From Thermoleophilia bacterium (GTDB taxonomy: Bacteria; Actinomycetota; Thermoleophilia; Miltoncostaeales; Miltoncostaeaceae), in NCBI GenBank assembly GCA_029861485.1, contig JAOTZF010000001.1:1-29599 (forward strand): a DNA stretch of 29,599 nucleotides. The letters run 5' to 3'. Made by a program: the position numbers and the translations under genes. Each line of letters opens with the position of its first letter. Within the stretch, counting starts at the first letter, position 1. Shown here piece after piece: positions 1-9,944 of the stretch. The notes beneath the pieces were generated by a model. The model did not search any database. It had not been told where the DNA came from and was given only the letters and a program-made list of their open reading frames with translations.

Positions 1-87
1 GCCGGGCAAGATCTCTCGCGAGGCTTTGGGGCGGTCGTAGTGTGAGGGTTCGAACGTGACCCACGCCCTGGGGTCAAGACGGGCCTA

Positions 88-203
88 GTGGGATTGAAGT
101 TGAACCCACACCCCCTGTAAATCGGATTGTTCGACATTCTTCAAAGCCTGAGGCTTCCTCCAAGATAGGCCGACGCAAGGAAGTGGGACTCAAGTTGAAC
201 CCC
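88..203. repeat. 116-bp direct repeat, copy 1
   Basis: Manual alignment with 1517-1632 gives 113/116 identity, with mismatches only at 118/1547, 126/1555 and 146/1575. 60/116 GC (52%), lower than the surrounding genes. Begins with GTGGGATTGAAGTTGAACCCAC and ends with GTGGGACTCAAGTTGAACCCC. Confidence 0.97.
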
Positions 204-282
204 GTCAGGCTGGCGCGCGCCCAAATCGCCGGCTGAGGGTATGCCAGCCGGTGCACGAAATGGTTGGAGGCGTGGTCGCGGC

Positions 283-1263
283 TCACATCGTGATGAGGAC
301 CTTGCCCCGGGCGCGCCCAGCCTCGATGTAGCGGATCGCTGCGGGGACCTCCTGCAGTGGGTAGGTTCGGTCGATGACGGGTATGACCTCTCCCGCTTCG
401 ATGAGTTCCTTCACCGACTGAAGCGCCTCTTTGCTGCCCTTGAAGAAGGGCGCATGGAGCGTCTGTTTGATGAACGGCGACAACATCATCGCGCGGAGGT
501 TGCGGTCTGTCCCACCGACCCAACGCCCACCCCGTCCGCCGATTATCACGAGGGTGCCGTCGGGCGCGAGCCCGCGCCGGAGGTGCCGAAGAGACCGGTT
601 GCCGGCGGTGTCCAGGATGACGTCGTAGCGCCGAACCCCATCCGCGAATTCCTCCTTGGTGTAGTCGATGACGTGATCCGCGCCAATCGATCGCACGAGA
701 TCCATCTTCGCCGTGCTGCAAAGGCCGGTTACCTCCGCACCGAGCGTCTTGGCGATCTGAACTGCGAACGTGCCGACGCCCCCCGCCGCACCGATGACCA
801 GCACAGTCTTTCCCGGCGTGACCTCCCCGAGATCGCGGAGCGCCCGCAAGGCTGTCGGACCGGACGAGGGCACGGCGGCCGCCTGTTCGAAAGTGAGGCC
901 CTCCGGCTTCCCAACCAGGGTGTCCGCCCTGGCGCACGTGTACTCGGCAAGGGAGCCATAGCCGGTACGAAAGCAGTCTCCGAACACCTCATCACCCGGC
1001 TGGAACTCGGTCACACTCGCTCCGATCGCCTCCACCAGGCCGGCGAAATCCGTGCCGCGCACGGGAACCTTAGGTTTGCGGAACCCGAAGCCCATCAGCC
1101 GGATCACGTAGGGCACTCCGGTGGTAAGAGCCAGTTCACCGGGATCAATGGCGGCCGCGCGAACTTCTACCAACACCTCATCGGGCCCGATCGCCGGAAC
1201 ATCGATGTCTTCGATACGAAGGACCTCGGGTGGGCCGTATCGGTCTTGGACCATCGCCTGCAT
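283..1263 (-). CDS. NAD(P)-dependent alcohol dehydrogenase/quinone oxidoreductase-like protein (MDR superfamily, likely Zn-independent)
   Basis: MQAMVQDRYGPPEVL N-terminus, GTDFAG in place of the GHE Zn motif, GAAGGVG Rossmann motif, C-terminal IDRTYPL...GKV. Start moved to ATG 1263, which has GAGGTG just upstream. Confidence 0.9.
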   Translation of the reverse strand: MQAMVQDRYGPPEVLRIEDIDVPAIGPDEVLVEVRAAAIDPGELALTTGVPYVIRLMGFGFRKPKVPVRGTDFAGLVEAIGASVTEFQPGDEVFGDCFRTGYGSLAEYTCARADTLVGKPEGLTFEQAAAVPSSGPTALRALRDLGEVTPGKTVLVIGAAGGVGTFAVQIAKTLGAEVTGLCSTAKMDLVRSIGADHVIDYTKEEFADGVRRYDVILDTAGNRSLRHLRRGLAPDGTLVIIGGRGGRWVGGTDRNLRAMMLSPFIKQTLHAPFFKGSKEALQSVKELIEAGEVIPVIDRTYPLQEVPAAIRYIEAGRARGKVLITM

Positions 1264-1516
1264 GGCACCTCTTCGCGTTGAGGCGCGGACGGCGCCGGTT
1301 CTCACGGATGTCAAGCAACGCTAGTCCGTGGTCTGACGCCGAGACGTCCCCGAAAGCCCCTGAAACGGTCTGCGGCAATGCCGCGCCGCGGGACGGCGGA
1401 GGTCACTCGCTCTATGGAGTGGAGCCTGTCCGCCTCAGACCTGCGAGCCCGGGAGCTGCTGCTATCGGATATCGCTAGGCGGTTGACGCGAGACCGCACC
1501 CGGAGTGAAACGGGCC

Positions 1517-1632
1517 GTGGGATTGAAGTTGAACCCACACCCCCTGCAAATCGGCTTGTTCGACATTCTTCAAAACCTGAGGCTTCCTCCAAGATAGGCC
1601 GACGCAAGGAAGTGGGACTCAAGTTGAACCCC
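1517..1632. repeat. 116-bp direct repeat, copy 2
   Basis: 113/116 identical to 88-203 at offset 1,429. Both copies are preceded by ACGGGCC(TA). Confidence 0.97.
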
Positions 1633-1776
1633 AACGTCGTCGGCCAGACGCCGGTCTGTCTGTGTTGGTTTGGGAGCGTCGGACGACTACGAGCTGACAA
1701 CGACCTCGCGTTGTGAGGTGGCGGTGGCATGCTTCTGGGGCAGATGCCGCCTCATCGTGGACTGACCATGAGGCGT

Positions 1777-4137
1777 CTATTCGTAAGCAAGCGTGTCACG
1801 GATGGTGAGCTTGGCTGCGACCCGCGCGGGGCGGGTTGCGCCGAGCGCTCCGATGACAAGCGCAATGGGAATCCAGACGGCGATGCCGACCCACGAGAGG
1901 CTGGCCGGTAGCGACGCCGCGAGCAGACTGCTGCCGATCACCTCGCGCAACAAGAAGTCCACCACGAAGGAGAGGGCAATCCCGAGCACGCATCCGGCCG
2001 CAGCGATGGCGAGCCCTTGGAGTAGCAGCAAGCGCGTAACGGCCCAACCCGATGCGCCAAGTGTGCGGATCACCCCGACCTCACGGGTCTGTTCGATGAC
2101 TCCGAGAGTCATTGTGCCGGCCACTCCGATCGCGGCCACGATCGCCAGGATGGCTCCGACCGCCAGCAGGAGAACAACGACGAGAACGAAGAGATTGTTG
2201 ACCAAGTCCCGGCGATCAGAGTTGGTTTGGACCACGCCGACCGGAATCCCCGCGTCGCGAGCGGTCGCCTCAATGCGGTCGGCGACTGCAGCCTGATCGG
2301 CGCCCGGTGCGAGTCGCACGGCCAGGAAGTTCGTCTGCCCGACCTCGCCGAGCTCGGCCGCCAGATCCTCGGTTGGCACGTAGACGACAGGGCCGACCAG
2401 GGTGGTGGTCGAAACACCGACGATTCGCCACTCGCGGCGGGCCCCCTCGATGTCGAGTACCACCTGGTCACCGACGCCGACATCGGATTCCTCATCGGCG
2501 AAGTGAGAGTTGACCACGATTGGATGGTCGTCGGCCGCCTCGAACCACCTACCTTCAATCAGGGTTGGGTCGATTGACGGCGAGCCGGTCGGTGCCGCGA
2601 TGAGGCTGACATTCTCGTTCTCCGTCCCATCCGGACGGATGCGGAACGCCTGCTTTTCGAACCAGCCTTCGACTCCTTCGACCGCCTGATCCTTCTCCAG
2701 GACCGCAGCGGCCGTCTTGAGTTCGGTGGTTTCGGTGAGTGCGAGCTCGACGTCATATGACCAGTAGCCGGCAACGTCATCACCGAGGCGCGAGAGGGCT
2801 TGACCGGTGCTGAGAACGCCGACAAGAACAGCGCCGCTCACGGCGATGGTCAGCACGGTGAGTACAAGCCGGGAGCGGTTTCGCACGGCGTTTCGATAGG
2901 CAAGCACTGTCGGTCGGGCGAAGGGCAGGACGGCCCGTCCTCGGCGCGCGGGTGTGGTGATTCCCCGGTCGGAGATTGCCTCTTGGACTGTGACGCGCGA
3001 GGCCCGGCGGACCGAGAGGATCACCGCGGCGATGGGAAGCAGCGTGGCGATCACGATTTCAATCACGATGGTCGCCCACGGGATACCCAGCGGCTCGAGA
3101 TCGAAATTGGCCAGGTCGGCAATGAAGCCGGCGAGGAACCGACCGGTCAGCACTGAGAGCGGAATCGCCACGATGAGGGCGCCCAGGGATAAGAGCAGCA
3201 CGTAGGCGAGGTATTGAGTGGTCAGCTGTCCCGATGTGCCGCCGATTGCCTTCATCACTCCGACCTGGCGTCGCTGTTGCGCCAAAAGCGCGGACACCGT
3301 GTTGATCACCAGGGCGACGGCAATCACGAGCGCAAGCAGCGACAGCAGCCGCATGATGGAGACGACGGATGCTATGGCGTTGTTGGCCCGGTGCTCGCTC
3401 GGCTCTTGAATGGCGCTCGACTCGATAGCAACGTTGGCCGGTTCGAGCACGCCATCGCGAACCGCGGTGGTCATCCCGATCGCCTGATTGCGATCCAACG
3501 GATCATCGGAGGCTCGGATGTAGAGCGAGTTGAGGAGTCTCGAGCCTGTGAGCTTGGCCATCGTCGCCATCGACAGATAGGCGCGTGCCGGACCACCGAG
3601 TGTGGGTGTGACTTCGTAGACGTCAAAGGCGGTCCCGTTGACTGGTAGATCGACCGGCGTCTTGCCGGGCAGGTTGATTGAGACCGTGTCGCCGACCCCT
3701 GCGCCCAGTTCATCGACCGACGACCGTTCCACCACGATTGCGTCGTTTGTCGGGGGCCACGTGCCGGTAGCGGGCTCAATTTTCGCAACCCGGTTCTCCG
3801 CGAAGTCGTTCATCGCGACGAGCTCCACGTTGACCGAGTCGCCCTTTGCATTGGTGACGCGCGTTTCGAGAATGCGCCGCCCCTCGACCTCGCTGACCGT
3901 CGGGTGGGCCGCGACGTCGTCCACCAGTTCGCTCGAGAATGGCTCGGTTCGCAGCATCGCCGAGGGTGGGTTGGCACCCAGGAAGCTCGACTCGAACGAG
4001 GTCCCAATCGTGGCGCCAGCCAAGTACATGGCGCCAACCGCGAGCATTCCAACCGCGAGCGAAGCAATCGCCAAGATCGAGCGTGACTTGTTGAATACGA
4101 GGTCCGAGCGGACCTTGCGCCAGCGCGAGCCCATCAC
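1777..4137 (-). CDS. ABC transporter permease, FtsX/MacB-like (two FtsX-type domains)
   Basis: 786 aa, two TM bundles each followed by Q(RR/TR)xVGVxxxxG(G/A) signatures, large extracytoplasmic domains. 4-bp overlap with the upstream ATPase. Confidence 0.9.
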   Translation of the reverse strand: MMGSRWRKVRSDLVFNKSRSILAIASLAVGMLAVGAMYLAGATIGTSFESSFLGANPPSAMLRTEPFSSELVDDVAAHPTVSEVEGRRILETRVTNAKGDSVNVELVAMNDFAENRVAKIEPATGTWPPTNDAIVVERSSVDELGAGVGDTVSINLPGKTPVDLPVNGTAFDVYEVTPTLGGPARAYLSMATMAKLTGSRLLNSLYIRASDDPLDRNQAIGMTTAVRDGVLEPANVAIESSAIQEPSEHRANNAIASVVSIMRLLSLLALVIAVALVINTVSALLAQQRRQVGVMKAIGGTSGQLTTQYLAYVLLLSLGALIVAIPLSVLTGRFLAGFIADLANFDLEPLGIPWATIVIEIVIATLLPIAAVILSVRRASRVTVQEAISDRGITTPARRGRAVLPFARPTVLAYRNAVRNRSRLVLTVLTIAVSGAVLVGVLSTGQALSRLGDDVAGYWSYDVELALTETTELKTAAAVLEKDQAVEGVEGWFEKQAFRIRPDGTENENVSLIAAPTGSPSIDPTLIEGRWFEAADDHPIVVNSHFADEESDVGVGDQVVLDIEGARREWRIVGVSTTTLVGPVVYVPTEDLAAELGEVGQTNFLAVRLAPGADQAAVADRIEATARDAGIPVGVVQTNSDRRDLVNNLFVLVVVLLLAVGAILAIVAAIGVAGTMTLGVIEQTREVGVIRTLGASGWAVTRLLLLQGLAIAAAGCVLGIALSFVVDFLLREVIGSSLLAASLPASLSWVGIAVWIPIALVIGALGATRPARVAAKLTIRDTLAYE

Positions 4138-4877
4138 GCCACCCTCGCGCGTTCTGAGACAGCACCGTCTTTGACTTCGACGATCCGACGGGTGCGCTCG
4201 GCCAGCTCCCGGTCGTGTGTGACCATGAGGATGGTCCGATCGCTCTCGACCAGCTCATCGAAGAGATCCATCATCGTGGACGCAGACTCCGAATCGAGGT
4301 TTCCCGTCGGCTCGTCGCCCAGGATGATCGGAGGGTCGTTGGAGAGGGCGCGGGCGATCGCCGCGCGCTGTTGTTGACCGCCTGACACCTCAGAGGGCAA
4401 CTTCTCCGCCTGGTCTGCGAGTCCGACCCGATCCAGAAGCTCGCGCGCAAACTCAGGCCGCTGCCGCCGAGGGTGGACCCCACAGAAGTCCATCGGAAGC
4501 ATCACGTTCTCGGCCAGGCTCAGCGTGGGAAGCAACTGGAAGAACTGAAAGACGACACCGACGTTCTTGCCGCGCCACCGCGCGGTCTCGTTTTCGTTGA
4601 GCGCCGATACCTCGACGCCGTCCACGACGACCCGGCCCTCGGTGGGCCGGTCAATGCCTGCCATCAAGTTGAGTAGTGTCGATTTACCCGAGCCAGAGGG
4701 CCCGACCACTCCAACGAACTCGCCAGCGCCGACCAACAGATCCGCGCTCTTTAGCGCGGTGAAGCTGATGCCACCGGTCGTATAGGTCTTCGATACCCCG
4801 TCAAATCTGATCAGCCCGGAGGTGTCGTCGTCGTTGGATGGCGAAGAATCGTCCTGAGAATGTCGTCCAAACCGCAC
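4134..4877 (-). CDS. ABC transporter ATP-binding protein (LolD/MacB-like)
   Basis: Walker A GPSGSGKS, Q-loop VFQ, signature VSGGQQQR, Walker B ILGDEPTGNLD, H-loop VTHD. Start placed at GTG 4877, 8 nt after GGAGG. Confidence 0.92.
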   Translation of the reverse strand: MRFGRHSQDDSSPSNDDDTSGLIRFDGVSKTYTTGGISFTALKSADLLVGAGEFVGVVGPSGSGKSTLLNLMAGIDRPTEGRVVVDGVEVSALNENETARWRGKNVGVVFQFFQLLPTLSLAENVMLPMDFCGVHPRRQRPEFARELLDRVGLADQAEKLPSEVSGGQQQRAAIARALSNDPPIILGDEPTGNLDSESASTMMDLFDELVESDRTILMVTHDRELAERTRRIVEVKDGAVSERARVA

Positions 4878-5583
4878 CGTCTGCACCTCCGTTGTGGTCT
4901 CCCGAAGGCTCTTCGGGGATCGCCGCGTGGCACAGGATGCGTCGGTCCCCCAGGGCACGCATCCGTGGCAATCCACATGCAGTTCGGGCGCTACTGGAGC
5001 GGCCGGACCGGGTGGCAGGCCCGGCCGTGAGCGAGAAGATGGCGTTTGGCGCCACTGAAACGCCTGGAACGCGCCACATTAGGGCGAGCAGCGATGCCGA
5101 GAAGCGAGCCAAGAAACCCCTGCATGACCATCATCCGGACTCCGTAGTTATCCGCATGCGGGAATCCGCCCGTGCGTAGCGCGACAACAAGGACTCACGA
5201 GTCCAAGGCCAGGCTGCAGCCAGCCAGGGTTCGGTTTTCACTGGACTACCGGCACGGGCCTGTATGCACCCGAGCTCACTGACCCTCGCCGCCGGACGAC
5301 CGACAAGGTCGGCCTCACGCCTTCGGCGGCGGGTCGATCTACGGGTTAGCTAGCGCTCCAGTCGGTAGTCGTCGGTGCAACGGGGTCAGCGCGAGGCCGA
5401 GACGCCAAGTAATGGTGGCGCAACTCGTCATCCTGGTCGGCCTGGATGTTGCGGAGATCTTCCGCGTGTAGTCAGCAAGAGTCCGGAGCGGGCCGGGTTC
5501 GAAAGCGACTCATTTCTTCGTGCTCGGCCGCAGCGATACGAAGACACCGCGACCAGGGGAAAGCCCCGTTGTCCACAGGACGT

Positions 5584-5614
5584 ACGGGCTTAGTGGGAGT
5601 GAGGTCGAACCAAA
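5584..5614. repeat. Degenerate single copy of the repeat-boundary site
   Basis: ACGGGCTTAGTGGGAGTGAGGTCGAACC (5584-5611) matches ACGGGCCTAGTGGGATTGAAGTTGAACC (79-106) at 24/28, same orientation. The rest of the 116-bp unit is absent here. Confidence 0.7.
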
Positions 5615-5798
5615 CCCGTTATCTCGCGATGGCGAGGACGGGCAAGCGCGGACTCTCGCCATTGCCGGGAGTCGCCCGTTGTTATCGGGGTTTTCCCCGG
5701 ATGCCTCGTGCCGCGAACGACCCCGATGATCTGCGCTCGAACGCGCGTTACACACGCCCGGTATTGGCGCGCGGCGAGTTCCGGGAGGGGTACGAAAG

Positions 5799-6359
5799 AT
5801 GGAAGGCAAACCGACCCCAGACGACCCGTCGGACAACGAGGCTGACGCCAGCGCGAACCGTCGCTGGCCGACATGGAGACGGCTCCTGTTCATCGTCGGG
5901 GCCATCGTGGTCGGGTTGCTCGTCCTCATCCAGGCGGTGCCCTACGGACGCGATCACACCAATCCCCCAGTGACGGCCACGACAACCTGGGACAGCCCGC
6001 AGACCCAGTCACTCTTTGCGACAGCGTGTGGCGACTGCCATTCCAACGAGACCGAGTGGCCGTGGTACTCCAACATCGCGCCGGTCTCCTGGCTGACCGA
6101 AAAAGACGTCAAGGACGGTCGCGAGGAGCTGAACACCTCGGAGGCGCAGTCCGAGGTTGAAGTCGAGGAGATGGTTGAGGTGATCCGCGACGGGAGTATG
6201 CCGCCGTGGTTCTACACCATTCCCCACCCCGACGCCGACCTCTCTTCTCGAGAGAAAGAGGCCCTCATCACGGGGCTTGAGGCCACCTTCCTCGGTAGGG
6301 AGACCACTGACCCACGAGGTGAGGAGGCGGAGTCTGAGGACGAGCAGGACGAATCCTGA
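5799..6359 (+). CDS. Membrane-anchored c-type heme-binding protein (Haem_bd-like)
   Basis: GGAGGGG RBS; N-terminal TM helix; CGDCH (CxxCH) followed by SNETEWPWYSNIAPVSWL; distal MPP motif. Confidence 0.85.
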   Translation: MEGKPTPDDPSDNEADASANRRWPTWRRLLFIVGAIVVGLLVLIQAVPYGRDHTNPPVTATTTWDSPQTQSLFATACGDCHSNETEWPWYSNIAPVSWLTEKDVKDGREELNTSEAQSEVEVEEMVEVIRDGSMPPWFYTIPHPDADLSSREKEALITGLEATFLGRETTDPRGEEAESEDEQDES

Positions 6360-6462
6360 GCATCCGGTCCAGCGAGTACTCCTCGTGTGACCCGTTCGAG
6401 CAGACCTAGCTGAACCGGCCTGGGGGTGATGGAGGCTTCTGACCGCTGAGAGGATGGAAGCC

Positions 6463-6780
6463 ATGAGCAAGAGGTATCCCCCGGAGATGAAGGAGCGCGC
6501 CTGTCGCCTGGTGGCCGACTGGCGACGTGAGCGACAACGATCAAACGGCGGCTTCAACGAGGTCGCGGCGCAGCTTGATGTCCACCCCGAGTCTCTACGC
6601 GGCTGGTTTCGCCAGTGGCAGATCGACGCCGGTGAGCAACCGGGCATCACGACGGAGGAGCAGAAGCGGATCACCGAGCTGGAGAGGGAGGTCCGAGAAC
6701 TCCGACGAGCCAACGAGATCCTCCGGTCTGCCTCGGCTTTTTTCGCGGCGGAGCTCGACCGCCCACGAAACTCGTCGTGA
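6463..6780 (+). CDS. IS3-family transposase OrfA (HTH)
   Basis: SKRYPPEMKERA...VAAQLDVHPESLRGW...ELRRANEILRSASAFFAAELDR, typical IS3 OrfA. Alternative ATG at 6454. Confidence 0.92.
   Translation: MSKRYPPEMKERACRLVADWRRERQRSNGGFNEVAAQLDVHPESLRGWFRQWQIDAGEQPGITTEEQKRITELEREVRELRRANEILRSASAFFAAELDRPRNSS
6738..6744 (+). promoter_or_regulatory. Putative -1 ribosomal frameshift site (T TTT TTC) joining OrfA and OrfB
   Basis: GCTTTTTTCGCG near the end of orfA, the usual position in IS3-family elements. Confidence 0.65.
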
Positions 6781-7685
6781 GCTACATCGACCAGCACAAG
6801 GACCAGTTCGGGGTCGAGCCCATCTGCGGCGCTTTGCAGGTGGTCTCATCGACCTACTACGCCGCCCGCTCGCGTCCGCCCTCTGCGCGCCAGCGCGAGG
6901 ATCAACGACTCAGTGCTGAGGTGATGCGCGTGTTCGAGAGCAACTACCGGGTGTACGGCAGGCGCAAGATCTGGGCTCAGCTCAACCGCGAAGGCATCCC
7001 GGTCGGGCGCGACCGGGTGGAGCGCCTGATGAAGCAGGCAGGCATCGCGGGAGCAGTCCGAGGAAAGAGAGTCAGAACGACCCGTCCGGACGAGCGCGCT
7101 CCACGTGCGCCTGATCTGGTCGATCGCGATTGGGCGGTATCTGCGCCCAATCGCGTCTGGGTCTCGGACTTCACGTACGTGGCCACCTGGTCGGGCATGG
7201 CGTATGTGGCGTTCGTGATCGATGTCTACTCACGACGGATCGTGGGGTGGCGGGTCGCCTCATCGATGCGCACCGCACTCGTGCTCGATGCGCTCGAGCA
7301 GGCAATCTGGGCGCGTGATGAGCGCCTCGAGGGCCTGATCGTTCACACCGACGCCGGCAGTCAATTCACGGCCATTCGTTTCACCGAGCGCCTGGCTGAG
7401 GTCGGTGCGGCACCATCGGTGGGATCGGTCGGCGATCCGATCGACAACGCGATCGCCGAATCGACCATCGGGCTCTACAAGAGCGAGCTGATCCGACGGC
7501 GCGGGCCCTGGCGCACCCTCGATGAGCTGGAGTTCGCCACCTTCGAGTACGTCGACTGGTTCAACCATCGTCGCCTGCACGGCGAGATCCGCCAGCGACC
7601 ACCTGCCGAGGTCGAAGACCTCTACTACCGTCAACGACCCGCCCCGATGGAGGGGCTCAACTCAGAAGAAATCGGTCTCCACTAA
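6777..7685 (+). CDS. IS3-family transposase OrfB (DDE integrase core)
   Basis: WVSDFTYV, HTDAGSQF, DNAIAES...KSE DDE triad; YVDWFNHRRLH C-terminus. Stop lies within the IRR. Confidence 0.95.
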   Translation: MSYIDQHKDQFGVEPICGALQVVSSTYYAARSRPPSARQREDQRLSAEVMRVFESNYRVYGRRKIWAQLNREGIPVGRDRVERLMKQAGIAGAVRGKRVRTTRPDERAPRAPDLVDRDWAVSAPNRVWVSDFTYVATWSGMAYVAFVIDVYSRRIVGWRVASSMRTALVLDALEQAIWARDERLEGLIVHTDAGSQFTAIRFTERLAEVGAAPSVGSVGDPIDNAIAESTIGLYKSELIRRRGPWRTLDELEFATFEYVDWFNHRRLHGEIRQRPPAEVEDLYYRQRPAPMEGLNSEEIGLH

Positions 7686-8041
7686 GCCCAGGCCGGTTCA
7701 TTTTGCTGGAGGACCCCTCAACCGTGATCCAAACGGGGCCGACCGGCAGATGGACTCCACCTCAACGCCACCCCCTCTGTCAATCACTGGTGGACCTGAC
7801 CCCCTCTCACGGACACCTGCTGACCGGAGAGAACCCGGCACGAAAGGGGCCCCCACGGCCCACGACTGCAACGCTGCTGATCTCGATGCCGTGATCGCCG
7901 CGCGACTGACGGGTGCGCCATCGGCTCGACGGCGAGTGGTTGATCGAACACGATCGCGGCTGTCCTGGCCCTGTCGAACACGCAGCGACAGCCGGGCCAC
8001 AGAGCCGAGGCCGCCTTTGCCACGCGTCGCGGAGGCAACCA

Positions 8042-8177: not shown

Positions 8178-9944
8178 TCACGGCAGGCTCTCCCAGAGCT
8201 CACGCACTGCGGTCGCGGTACCTGCCAGCGGTACCTGCTCGGCGCGCTGATCGGCCCTGACCTGGGCCTCGATCGGACCATCGGGAAGGGTCCGCTTTCC
8301 GATGGTCAGTCGCAACGGGCAACCGAGCAACTCGGCCTCCACGAACTTCTCGCCGGGCTTCACGTCCTCTCGGTCGTCATAGAGCACGTCGAGTTTCGCC
8401 TCTGTGAGCTCGACGAAGAGCCGGTCTGCCAGCTCCGCCTGCTCCGTCCCGGACGCCCCGATGAGAACGAGGTGCACGTCGAACGGCGCCAGCGGCTTCG
8501 GCCAGACGATGCCGGCGTCGTCGTTGCTCTGCTCGATCGCCGCGGCGGCGATTCGGGCGGGGCCGATCCCGTAGGAGCCCATGACGATCGGGCGCTCGTT
8601 GCCATCCTCGCCGAGATACGTCGCCCCAAGCGCCTCCGAGTAGCGGGTGCCCAGCTTGAAGATGTTGCCGAGCTCGATCACCTTCTCCAGCAGCAGCGGC
8701 TGGCCGTCGACCACGCTCAGCTCACCCTCGAGCACCTCCCGGATGTCCGCGGTCTCGGCGGTGAAGTCACGCCCGAGCACTGCGCCGCGCAGATGGACGC
8801 CCTCGCGATTGGCCCCAGTGACGTAGTGACCTCGAGCGATGGTCTCGTCGGCGATTACGCGCACGCCGTCGAGGCCGACCGGGCCGATGGAGCCCGGGGG
8901 GCAGCCGAACCACTGCTCGATCTCCTCGGGGTGCGCCGCGCGGTGGGGCCCGATGATCCTCGCGAGCTTCTTCTCGTGCACCTGATGCTCGCCACGGACG
9001 ATCGCGAGCACGGGGCCGTCGTCGTTCACGACGCACACGTTCTTCGAGAGTCGGGCCGCGGGAAGCCCGGTGAGTTGCACCAGCTGGTCGATGGAGCCGA
9101 CATCGGGGGTGTCGAATGGCTCGGGCTCGCCGGGCGTCTCGCCGAAGGCGGGCTCGTGCGCGACCGATACCGCCAGCTCGACGTTGGCCGCATAGCTCCC
9201 ATCGGCGGTTCGAGCGATGAGGTCTTCCCCGGCCGGGCTCGGGGCCATGTACTCGTGCGCCCCGCGGCCGCCCATCATGCCCGTATCGCTCTCCACGCGA
9301 TGCCACCTGACCCCACACCGATCGAAGATGCGCCGATAGGCGATCGAGTGCGCCTGGTAGGAGGCGTTAAGACCGGCGTCGTCGCGGTCGAACGAGTACG
9401 AGTCCTTCATCTGGAACTCGCGCACCCGCAGCAGCCCGCCCTTGGCCCGTGGCTCATCGCGGAGCTTGGTGTGGATCTGATACCAGGACTGAGGAAGGTC
9501 ACGGTAGCTCCGGAGCTCGCGCGCGGCGTGCCAGGTGATGATCTCCTCGTGAGTCATCGCGAGGACCATCGCCCGGCCCCCCCGATCTTCGAGGCCGAAC
9601 TGCTCATCCAACGGGTAGCGCCCGGTCTGCTCCCAGATCTCGGCGGGATGCAGCACCGGCATCATCAGCTCTTGGGCGCCGATCGCGTCCATCTCCTCGC
9701 GGATGATCCGGTTGATGCGCTCGAGGACCTTCAGGCCGAGCGGCAGGATCGTGTAGAGCCCCGCGGCGAGCTGACGCACCAACCCGGCGCGCACCATCAG
9801 CTTGTGGCTGATCGCCTCGGCATCAGCCGGGGGGTCGCGCAGGGTCGGCCAGAGCCGGCCGGACAGGCGCCACGAGCCCGCGACCGGAGCAGCGGGCATC
9901 GCCCAGCCCTCCGGGGCCTGAATGCTGTCCATCTCCTCGCTCAC
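8178..9944 (-). CDS. proS: Proline--tRNA ligase (bacterial type with INS editing domain)
   Basis: PTLRD...ISHKLMVRAG, LAMTHEE, RDEPRAKGGLLRVREF, editing insertion, GNIFKLGTRYS, MGSYGIG, C-terminal anticodon-binding domain. Start uncertain (GTG 9944 chosen; ATGs at 9932 and 9899). Confidence 0.96.
   Translation of the reverse strand: MSEEMDSIQAPEGWAMPAAPVAGSWRLSGRLWPTLRDPPADAEAISHKLMVRAGLVRQLAAGLYTILPLGLKVLERINRIIREEMDAIGAQELMMPVLHPAEIWEQTGRYPLDEQFGLEDRGGRAMVLAMTHEEIITWHAARELRSYRDLPQSWYQIHTKLRDEPRAKGGLLRVREFQMKDSYSFDRDDAGLNASYQAHSIAYRRIFDRCGVRWHRVESDTGMMGGRGAHEYMAPSPAGEDLIARTADGSYAANVELAVSVAHEPAFGETPGEPEPFDTPDVGSIDQLVQLTGLPAARLSKNVCVVNDDGPVLAIVRGEHQVHEKKLARIIGPHRAAHPEEIEQWFGCPPGSIGPVGLDGVRVIADETIARGHYVTGANREGVHLRGAVLGRDFTAETADIREVLEGELSVVDGQPLLLEKVIELGNIFKLGTRYSEALGATYLGEDGNERPIVMGSYGIGPARIAAAAIEQSNDDAGIVWPKPLAPFDVHLVLIGASGTEQAELADRLFVELTEAKLDVLYDDREDVKPGEKFVEAELLGCPLRLTIGKRTLPDGPIEAQVRADQRAEQVPLAGTATAVRELWESLP

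Follow-up and report, generated by a model that had tools for sequence, protein, structure and literature searches.

The stretch of DNA analysed here, referred to as the window, is the 29,599-nt contig C217 of G000, a metagenome-assembled genome (MAG) of a Thermoleophilia bacterium from the family Miltoncostaeaceae (1.66 Mb, 238 contigs, 67% complete). Near its left end lies the one 116-nt direct repeat family of the window, with copies at 88–203 and 1517–1632 that agree at 113 of 116 positions (97%) and are spaced 1429 nt apart. Repeat pairs of such size and identity are expected by chance at a rate of about 1e-51. The three mismatches fall at positions 118, 126, and 146. Identity between the copies begins at GGGCC (81–85 and 1512–1516), is broken by a TA indel before GTGGG, and in the alignment ends abruptly after 203 and 1632, so that the sharp stop in homology described in the original prediction is seen again. 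The other observations of that prediction, namely, noncoding and AT-richer repeats around one gene and its upstream region, were likewise reproduced. The GC contents of the repeats are 51.7% and 52.6%, compared to 65.3% for the DNA that they enclose and 67.4% for the window. The enclosed DNA contains one supported gene, at 283–1263 on the minus strand, together with its upstream region of about 250 nt, and the gene product matches the Pfam families ADH_zinc_N_2 (9e-28), ADH_zinc_N (2e-16), and ADH_N (3e-13). Each repeat unit bears a 20–22-nt motif at both of its ends, in direct rather than inverted orientation, with starts at 88 and 183 in the left unit and at 1517 and 1612 in the right unit, a distance of 95 nt in both.

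Read on the minus strand, each repeat terminates in a 27-nt motif, GGTTCAACTTCAATCCCACTAGGCCCG, which resembles the T-arm and acceptor 3′ end of tRNA-Ser. The layout of the site on this strand is GGGGGTkT, followed by GGGTTCAACTTCAATCCCAC and then TAGGCCCG; a long form of the site carries an additional, partial motif copy 95 nt upstream of the main motif. In the left site, the main motif occupies 80–106, a conserved GGGGGTGT extends to 113, the interior spans 114–182, and the second, partial motif lies at 183–203. The two repeats had been taken for the two ends of a mobile gene cassette, and this claim stood in part. Recombination-type sites do delimit a single-gene cargo. However, the moving unit is not repeat–gene–repeat, as there is one 3′ site per cassette. 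Because each cassette owns a single minus-strand 3′ site, with boundaries at 79/80 and 1510/1511 (a slash denotes a junction throughout), the right-hand repeat belongs to the neighboring ABC-transporter cassette. The two 116-nt repeats are thus probably the 3′-terminal attachment sites of two neighboring, recombinase-less cassettes in a tRNA-anchored additive genomic island. Annotated in these terms, the left part of the window contains the following features, in which "class a" and "class b" denote two kinds of cassette start described below.

1–79, minus strand: start of the next downstream cassette, truncated at the contig edge; it opens, in the form of class b, with TCTTGACC...GTCACGTTCGAACCC, an imperfect copy of the motif in inverse orientation
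80–203, minus strand: long-form terminal site of the oxidoreductase cassette (nhmmer E = 1.3e-14; junction 79/80)
204–1510, minus strand: body of the oxidoreductase cassette, with a gene for a 326-aa zinc-type medium-chain dehydrogenase/quinone oxidoreductase at 283–1263 and its upstream region at 1264–1510
1511–1632, minus strand: long-form terminal site of the ABC-transporter cassette (main motif from 1511 to about 1535, without the TA of the left copy; second motif 1612–1632; junction 1510/1511)
1633–5584, minus strand: body of the ABC-transporter cassette, with a MacB/FtsX-type permease at 1777–4137 and an ABC ATPase at 4134–4976 (Pfam)
5585–5619, minus strand: short-form, diverged site GGTTCGACCTCACTCCCACTAAGCCCG closing the haem-binding-protein cassette (E = 1e-6; junction 5584/5585)
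5620–6410, minus strand: body of the Haem_bd cassette, with a gene at 5799–6359 on the plus strand, antisense to the site (Pfam Haem_bd, 2.6e-35); its start region is broken by an insertion sequence (IS)
6411–7700, plus strand: IS3-family insertion sequence, with orfA at about 6464–6780 and orfB at 6777–7685 (rve and HTH_21 domains) and a frameshift pseudoknot (Rfam ALIL, 73.5 bits)

The ABC cassette has a 600-nt upstream region, which opens at its junction with a class a start holding TTGTCCACA (5569–5577, plus strand). The type of class b start seen at 1–79 is also found directly after a real tRNA-Ser(GGA) gene on contig C72 of the same MAG.

Motif sites and tRNA-Ser-headed arrays

The motif was followed in G000, in a congeneric MAG (G001), in a family survey of 101 Miltoncostaeaceae (Thermoleophilia) genomes, all of which are MAGs, and in a series of L-numbered sequences that includes metagenome contigs (L009 and L069 are contigs C226 and C72 of G000, respectively). 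Eight full motif sites occur in G000 on three contigs: three in the window (including that at 5585–5611), three on C226, and two degenerate ones on C107. All are intergenic and share a single orientation within each contig. G001 yields 19 motif matches versus 1 control match, and it contains six more long-form units, in which the two motifs are again 94–95 nt apart while the interiors are only about 75% identical to those of the window. Across the family, a 17-nt core of the motif is present in 18 of the 101 genomes, against zero control matches.

The sequence common to the motif and tRNA-Ser is GGGTTCrA..ATCCC..CCG/YT. At motif sites the junction consensus reads GCCCG/YT (Y in 56 of 58), and at tRNA-Ser genes CTCCG/YT (18 of 18). 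The original prediction considered the site not assignable to any known class; it is instead a mimic of the tRNA-Ser 3′ end, as is left by integration at tRNA genes, and the arrays to which it belongs start at tRNA-Ser. Searches for a known RNA or CRISPR at the unit returned only CRISPR-DR24 at E = 8.3 from Rfam, and no tRNA or transfer-messenger RNA (tmRNA) from ARAGORN. A promoter or terminator, judged by eye, was dropped because the orientation of genes relative to the site is mixed.

The arrays are ordered as tRNA-Ser, cassette–site, cassette–site, and so forth, head to tail downstream of the tRNA gene. The motif lies 1–7 kb downstream of a same-strand tRNA-Ser (TGA, GCT, CGA, or GGA) in nine genomes from about seven other genera: G030 and G022, with tRNA-Ser(TGA); G008, with tRNA-Ser(CGA); G021, with tRNA-Ser(GGA) and three successive sites; and G068, G102, G111, G114, and G123. 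The metagenome contigs L120/133, L122, L126, and L129 are headed in the same manner, and L129 has a divergent tRNA-Ser pair, each gene of which stands at the head of its own array, the two running in opposite directions. In G000 itself, the real tRNA-Ser(GGA) on C72 ends ...GGGTTCAAATCCCTCCCTCTCCG and is followed by CTTCGGCCCTAGGGCGTGA...; this same downstream DNA follows the motif in G001 C182 and in L125, with the switch at exactly CCG/CTTCGG. Exceptions to tRNA-Ser heading are G105 and G117. G117 has four motif loci without tRNA-Ser within 10 kb, and in one of its contigs (L150, G117:C1, 2256–3515) the motif is 1.2 kb downstream of a same-strand tRNA-Met(CAT). Therefore, tRNA-Ser is not the sole possible head. 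L120 additionally bears inverted motifs, at 7328–7354 (minus) and 8984–9010 (plus), around a segment of about 1.6 kb beside its divergent tRNA-Ser pair, as does L133; recombination between these would invert, not delete, the segment. An unrelated short repeat is located on C72 at L069 742–845, between tRNA-Ser(GGA) and tRNA-Val(CAC), and matches at least seven G001 contigs at 72–83%.

The cassette units are 0.7–3.9 kb long and hold one or two unrelated genes each, of which about 60% are in sense orientation to the motif and many are antisense. In addition to the oxidoreductase, the MacB-type permease with its ABC ATPase, and the haem-binding protein of the window, the cargo in G000 comprises, on C226 (L009), an ArsR-type regulator with a cytochrome cd1 nitrite reductase (nirS; 1643–3391) in one cassette and a 963-aa CHASE4-PAS-GGDEF-EAL protein in the adjacent cassette, and, on C107, a glyoxalase. 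The mobile pool thus includes genes for denitrification and cyclic di-GMP signaling.

The starts of the cassettes are of several kinds. Of 77 starts, 14 belong to class a, 11 to class b, and 52 are unclassified. Class a starts contain TGTGGAyAA, a DnaA-box-like 9-mer, at +6 to +8 from the junction, and class b starts repeat the motif imperfectly and in inverted orientation. Both also occur after real tRNA genes: class a after many tRNA-Ser(TGA/GCT/CGA) genes and class b after tRNA-Ser(GGA). The 9-mer can be a perfect actinobacterial-type DnaA box, TTGTCCACA in the window and TTATCCACA in other copies, at a fixed distance from the junction; two control windows gave 0 matches to it. This match may be no more than a chance resemblance to a recombinase half-site, or it may reflect a part played by DnaA as host factor. 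A central palindrome as a general sign of a serine recombinase was dropped, as it holds for only 25 of the 77 junctions, those of class a and class b.

Exchange of cassettes at the end of the site

To compare neighborhoods, 400 nt on each side of 88 sites were clustered, with sharing called at 88% identity or above. Seven sets of sites share one flank and differ on the other (examples include U0, U1, U3, D0, and D4), and the switch is always at ...CCCG/. The sites at window 5585 and at G001 C105 3234 terminate the same Haem_bd cassette (98.4% identical to C105 3233–4057) and are identical, and different downstream DNA follows in the two genomes. Likewise, the ABC cassette is 98.3% identical over 2295 nt to G001 C243, where its terminal unit (96%) comes after the same permease gene and the DNA past the junction is unrelated, in contrast to the oxidoreductase cassette found there in the window. 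The oxidoreductase cassette, in turn, is also present on L130 with another downstream neighbor. In keeping with the mobile cassette of the original prediction, a listing of cargo between repeat copies in related genomes gave differing cargo between copies and differing neighbors for the same cargo. One diverged variant of the site, GGTTCGACCTCACTCCCAC..., moves together with the cassette upstream of it, and this places the exchange point within the last ~8 bases of the site. Random chimeras are unlikely to account for these arrangements, because a number of the junctions were found again in assemblies made independently (L134/L135/L136, L121/L122, L127/L136, and L131/C226).

The cassettes shared by G000 and G001 are 96.4–99.1% identical, while 19.8 kb of the window core is only 76–80% identical, a contrast that partly depends on binning; single G001 contigs are themselves mosaics of 98% and 70–79% segments. 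This difference between cassettes and core points to recent horizontal cassette exchange between species.

Public reads were consulted in the form of Logan contigs from four sediment metagenome runs (X1, X2, and X3 among them), which are assembled contigs only and from which rare variants are dropped. Two independent X1 contigs, of 1461 and 4184 nt, span 86–1546 and 2257–6440, respectively, so the gene order of the window over these intervals is real. Over the oxidoreductase cassette, the X1 and X2 contigs show 24 differences to the window, which are confined to 116–273, such that the interior of the left unit is about 24% diverged. L130 carries the same gene with the same diverged left unit, and an X3 contig matches the window exactly over 174–418. 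Two alleles therefore exist, one with the cassette's own diverged site, and the other, that of the window, with a copy of the site of the neighboring ABC cassette. As the left unit is diverged in X1, X2, and L130 while X3 matches the window, the 113/116 near-identity with which this analysis began is secondary and allele-specific, and not a property of the cassette as such.

Together, these observations suggest how the arrays might be built. Each cassette would be a small, non-autonomous integrative element with a split attP, in which the mimic provides the core site on the P side and the P′ side is provided by the cassette start, in many cases a partial copy of the mimic in inverse orientation. 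The second motif of the long form may serve as an arm-type or accessory site. The 3′ end of tRNA-Ser with its flank would constitute the natural attB. Integration, at tRNA-Ser or at a site already in place, and excision, by site-by-site recombination, would both be carried out by a site-specific recombinase acting in trans, with a tRNA-targeting tyrosine integrase of an integrative and conjugative element (ICE) or a phage-like element as the most likely candidate. The two near-identical copies in the window would then make the 1.4-kb oxidoreductase cassette deletable.

Candidate recombinases and rival explanations

A number of observations weigh against tRNA-anchored cassette accretion. Some come from the search for a recombinase. 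In six genomes (G000, G001, and four of other genera), PF00589 and PF00239 genes are absent from the array contigs and from the 10 kb around the tRNA-Ser arrays examined. The distribution of an Xer-like gene, found in 94 of the 101 family genomes, does not follow that of the motif. The same is true of a 207-aa serine recombinase, which is found in 62 of 101 genomes, many of them motif-less, and is missing from the motif-bearing G021. Further, a tRNA with the T-arm and acceptor of the mimic occurs in none of 61 family genomes, on which ground a genuine tRNA was rejected as the source of the mimic; the motif is thus not a literal tRNA copy, unlike ordinary displaced tRNA fragments. A recognizable conserved right half is lacking at 52 of the 77 junctions. 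No contig in the four public runs skips the 1429 nt or shows a circle joint, and the 1,429-bp circle and the empty allele envisaged in the original prediction are thus not found there, which is a weak negative given that only contigs were searched. The head of the array is not visible in the window, since the contig begins at base 1 and the link toward tRNA-Pro passes through a multi-copy IS. Finally, the dependence of the core-versus-cassette contrast on binning applies throughout, all genomes being MAGs.

The remaining recombinase genes provide some leads. No integrase was found in the ~40 cassettes examined, and the flanks of the tRNA-Ser pairs hold accessory genes only. A tblastn search with nine recombinases against all array loci returned only two matches, a tRNA-Gly(CCC)-type integrase on L119 and an integrase in G105. 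In L119 (Ga0224508_10008849), the segment 4245–7100 contains, in order, an excisionase-like gene and a tyrosine integrase gene, a 47-nt partial reversed tRNA-Gly(CCC), a low-GC hydrolase gene, and a long-form unit; a tRNA-Gly-specific integrative element with its own partial tRNA-Gly att thus sits within a cassette array. The G105 integrase is a tyrosine integrase of 444 aa, whose gene lies 135 nt after a motif and is followed by genes for an IclR regulator and an excisionase-type HTH_17 protein, and by TrbC/EccE-like genes. This ICE-like element is seated at the motif as if at a tRNA, and it represents the one positive recombinase lead; no further motif that could mark its second end was found within 40 kb. 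The other integrases in these genomes each adjoin a different tRNA (Gly, Val, Cys, or Lys), so tRNA-targeting tyrosine integrases are common in the family. The single PF00239 gene of G000 is on a separate contig in a conserved chromosomal context. On G000 C99 and G001 C102, two adjacent, overlapping Xer-like tyrosine recombinase genes lie beside a PknB-type kinase gene, with a third 10–15 kb off. The orthologous adjacent pair is present in six of six genomes examined, and one gene of it, searched for across the family, is present in 94 of 101. A tandem arrangement is unusual for xerC/xerD.

Four other explanations of the repeats were weighed. According to the first, the repeat is an ordinary intergenic element resembling a repetitive extragenic palindrome (REP), a bacterial interspersed mosaic element, or a miniature inverted-repeat transposable element (MITE), with no dedicated recombinase, and the varied gene orders result from homologous recombination between dispersed copies. 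The repeat is indeed multi-copy and strictly intergenic, no recombinase was found nearby, and the left copy was apparently converted to the sequence of its neighbor, for which homologous recombination or gene conversion would suffice. However, only eight full copies are present, on three contigs of a 1.66-Mb MAG, and they are co-oriented per contig, carry direct motifs within the unit, and are tightly associated with tRNA-Ser in position and strand across genera. Exchange always occurs at the same few bases despite only ~30–45 nt of shared homology, and near-identical cassettes are found in genomes that are 20% diverged. Nor are the hairpins of such elements in evidence: for six junction regions, single-strand DNA folding gave structures whose stability does not exceed that of shuffled sequence (z = +0.3 to −1.3), and on this ground attC-like and REP-like hairpins were both rejected. 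This explanation is therefore unlikely. The repeat is also not the end of a known IS, the other identity considered in the original prediction alongside a genome-wide MITE/REP, as the ends of the neighboring IS3 element (TGAACCGGCC...) are unrelated to the unit. Matches to the unit were absent from PLSDB plasmids and INPHARED phages in blastn searches, and IMG/VR gave only chance 17-mer matches.

A second explanation casts the cassettes as non-autonomous transposons, their terminal inverted repeats being the motif and its inverted partial copy, which a target-specific transposase, such as one of the Tn7 type, inserts after the tRNA-Ser 3′ end or after the previous copy. The class a and class b starts can be viewed as imperfect inverted motif copies of this kind, orientation-specific and tRNA-proximal insertion with stacking recalls attTn7-type behavior, and the two direct motifs of the long form recall the multiple transposase-binding sites of a transposon end. 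Yet adjacent cassettes are separated by no spacer or target-site duplication beyond the shared CCG, the inverted copy is missing at the 52 unclassified junctions, and the array contigs encode no Tn7-type or other transposase except that of the unrelated IS3. The transposon explanation is accordingly improbable.

Third, the motif might be an RNA-level, tRNA-like minihelix, serving as a signal for 3′-end processing, stability, or termination, and the position of the breakpoint would then be incidental. Its resemblance to a T-arm and acceptor, its invariably present GGG/CCC stem, and the sense orientation of some 60% of the cassette genes would suit such a role. The pattern of conservation does not: it peaks in the would-be 12-nt loop, above the stems, and RNAalifold on nine long-form units detects no covariation (covariation term +1.17; double changes in only 3 of 22 pairs). 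Together with folds no better than shuffles, the many antisense cassette genes, and the lack of Rfam matches or ARAGORN calls, this makes an RNA function highly improbable. Since the folds do not exceed shuffles, covariation is absent, and the loop is best conserved, the site has the appearance of a protein-binding site in double-stranded DNA, and not of an RNA, a REP element, or an attC-like hairpin. Fourth, there is very little chance that the near-identity of the copies or the cassette order is a MAG assembly artefact, for although the left unit in X1 and X2 differs from the window at 24 positions and the IS3 junction 7700/7701 continues otherwise in X1 and X3, independent X1 contigs span 86–1546 and 2257–6440, an X3 contig matches 174–418 exactly, and many junctions are reproduced in separate metagenome assemblies.

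Known islands, integrons, and the neighboring insertion sequence

Among described systems, the closest in kind to these arrays are additive flexible islands, or tandem accretion at tRNA and tmRNA genes, including that of cis-mobilizable elements. In Prochlorococcus, tycheposon islands retain partial tRNAs between successive insertions, along with scattered remnants (10.1101/2020.12.28.424599). The ssrA islands of Dehalococcoides are arranged in tandem and bear a repeat of 20 bp and, upstream of it, a further motif without alignment to ssrA; 15 of them lack an integration module and were proposed to be cis-mobilizable (PMC3146451). The additive islands of "Ca. Actinomarinales" (fGI1) contain small cassettes that insert at tRNAs (PMC7771536). 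As in such additive islands, the array starts at a tRNA 3′ end and is co-oriented with it, which holds for the element family in nine genomes, at least four metagenome contigs, and C72. Each unit ends in a direct repeat resembling the 3′ part of the tRNA, and newer units push older ones outward. Many units are without an integrase of their own, their cargo is one of accessory metabolism and regulation, and related genomes differ in which units they contain and in what order, the breakpoints falling at the repeats. The additional conserved motif upstream of the repeat, not aligning with the RNA gene, is a likeness to Dehalococcoides in particular. In other respects the arrays depart from additive islands. 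Instead of copying the resident tRNA, the repeat is a dedicated mimic that different genera share in conserved form, its "T-loop" being 12 nt long and its acceptor not that of tRNA-Ser; exchange takes place at the extreme 3′ end (CCG/YT) and not in the T- or anticodon loop; the units are tiny (0.7–3.9 kb, one or two genes), with an integrase in 0 of ~40; and there is a two-motif long form (95 nt), with all four tRNA-Ser isoacceptors serving as heads. The dedicated cross-genus mimic, the extreme 3′ exchange point, the integron-size cassettes, the integrase-less units, and the two-motif long form are what is new here relative to published islands. A literature search found no paper describing the cassette/site system.

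The original prediction had offered resolvase res sites, integron cassettes, and pdif modules as example layouts, and the site matches none of the three, notwithstanding partial likenesses to each. Recombinase-less single-gene cassettes, head-to-tail arrays, a conserved 3′ site, and exchange at the end of that site are all shared with integrons, as is cargo of unrelated functions, and very similar sites within one array are shared with chromosomal integrons specifically. Unlike integrons, however, the arrays have no IntI, attI, or Pc promoter, and no tyrosine recombinase is encoded on any array contig; against the integron-integrase profile TIGR02249, the adjacent Xer-like pair scores at most 78 bits, with a cut-off of 265. 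The cassettes have their own upstream regions and occur in both orientations, and their platform is a tRNA gene. The sequence GTTGAAC does fit the attC consensus GTTRRRY, but it occurs twice in direct, not inverted, orientation, and there is no significant single-strand hairpin. With pdif modules and integrative mobile elements exploiting Xer recombination, in which host XerC/XerD act on dif-like sites, the cassettes have in common the lack of a recombinase, the short specific sites, and a presumed dependence on a recombinase encoded elsewhere; an Xer-like gene is universal in the family. In contrast to pdif, the sites on a contig are all in one orientation rather than alternating between XerC/D and XerD/C, and they are chromosomal and beside tRNA genes. 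Like res sites, the units are ~120 bp long with more than one binding-site-like motif each, but these direct motifs are not dyad-symmetric subsites, and no resolvase or transposon is adjacent.

The arrays follow an already described style of genome island, here with an unusually integron-like form, and their cassettes are swapped between species within one family of sediment actinobacteria. A bolder proposal, put forward tentatively and with some doubt, is that Miltoncostaeaceae possess a dedicated cassette-capture system parallel to the integron, in which tRNA-Ser would act as the attI-like platform, the mimic as the attC-like site with an optional second motif, and a recombinase acting in trans would shuffle cassettes between species. 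In IntegronFinder surveys, integrons are reported to be missing from Actinomycetota; here one actinobacterial family builds single-gene cassette arrays by another route, from tRNA-Ser and a conserved tRNA-mimic site. The 27-nt motif offers a simple sequence handle on the flexible gene pool of uncultured sediment bacteria, a pool that includes nitrite reductase, efflux pumps, oxidoreductases, and signaling proteins. It also raises the biochemical question of which recombinase recognizes both the tRNA-Ser 3′ end and the mimic. Should this enzyme be found, high-GC Gram-positives could gain a tool for integrating cassettes, made up of the short site and the tRNA platform.

The IS3 element to the right of the cassettes is inserted about 15 nt within the start of the Haem_bd cassette and is multi-copy (depth ~23 vs. 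6). In the window it is flanked by ..CCTAGC and TTTTGC without a target duplication. In runs X1 and X3, as in G001, its right end instead continues into AGCCGTC plus a motif, which yields an AGC target duplication. Given that the element is multi-copy and has this alternative continuation, the join of the array to 7701–29599, on the tRNA-Pro side, may be the assembler's choice at a repeat. A second IS3 copy of the same family, on G000 C226 at about 250–300 (L009), abuts a motif, ~7 nt upstream of it, and a joint 112→6410 is present in run X1. This copy and the window insertion ~15 nt after a junction hint at a preference of the IS3 element for the neighborhood of motif sites.

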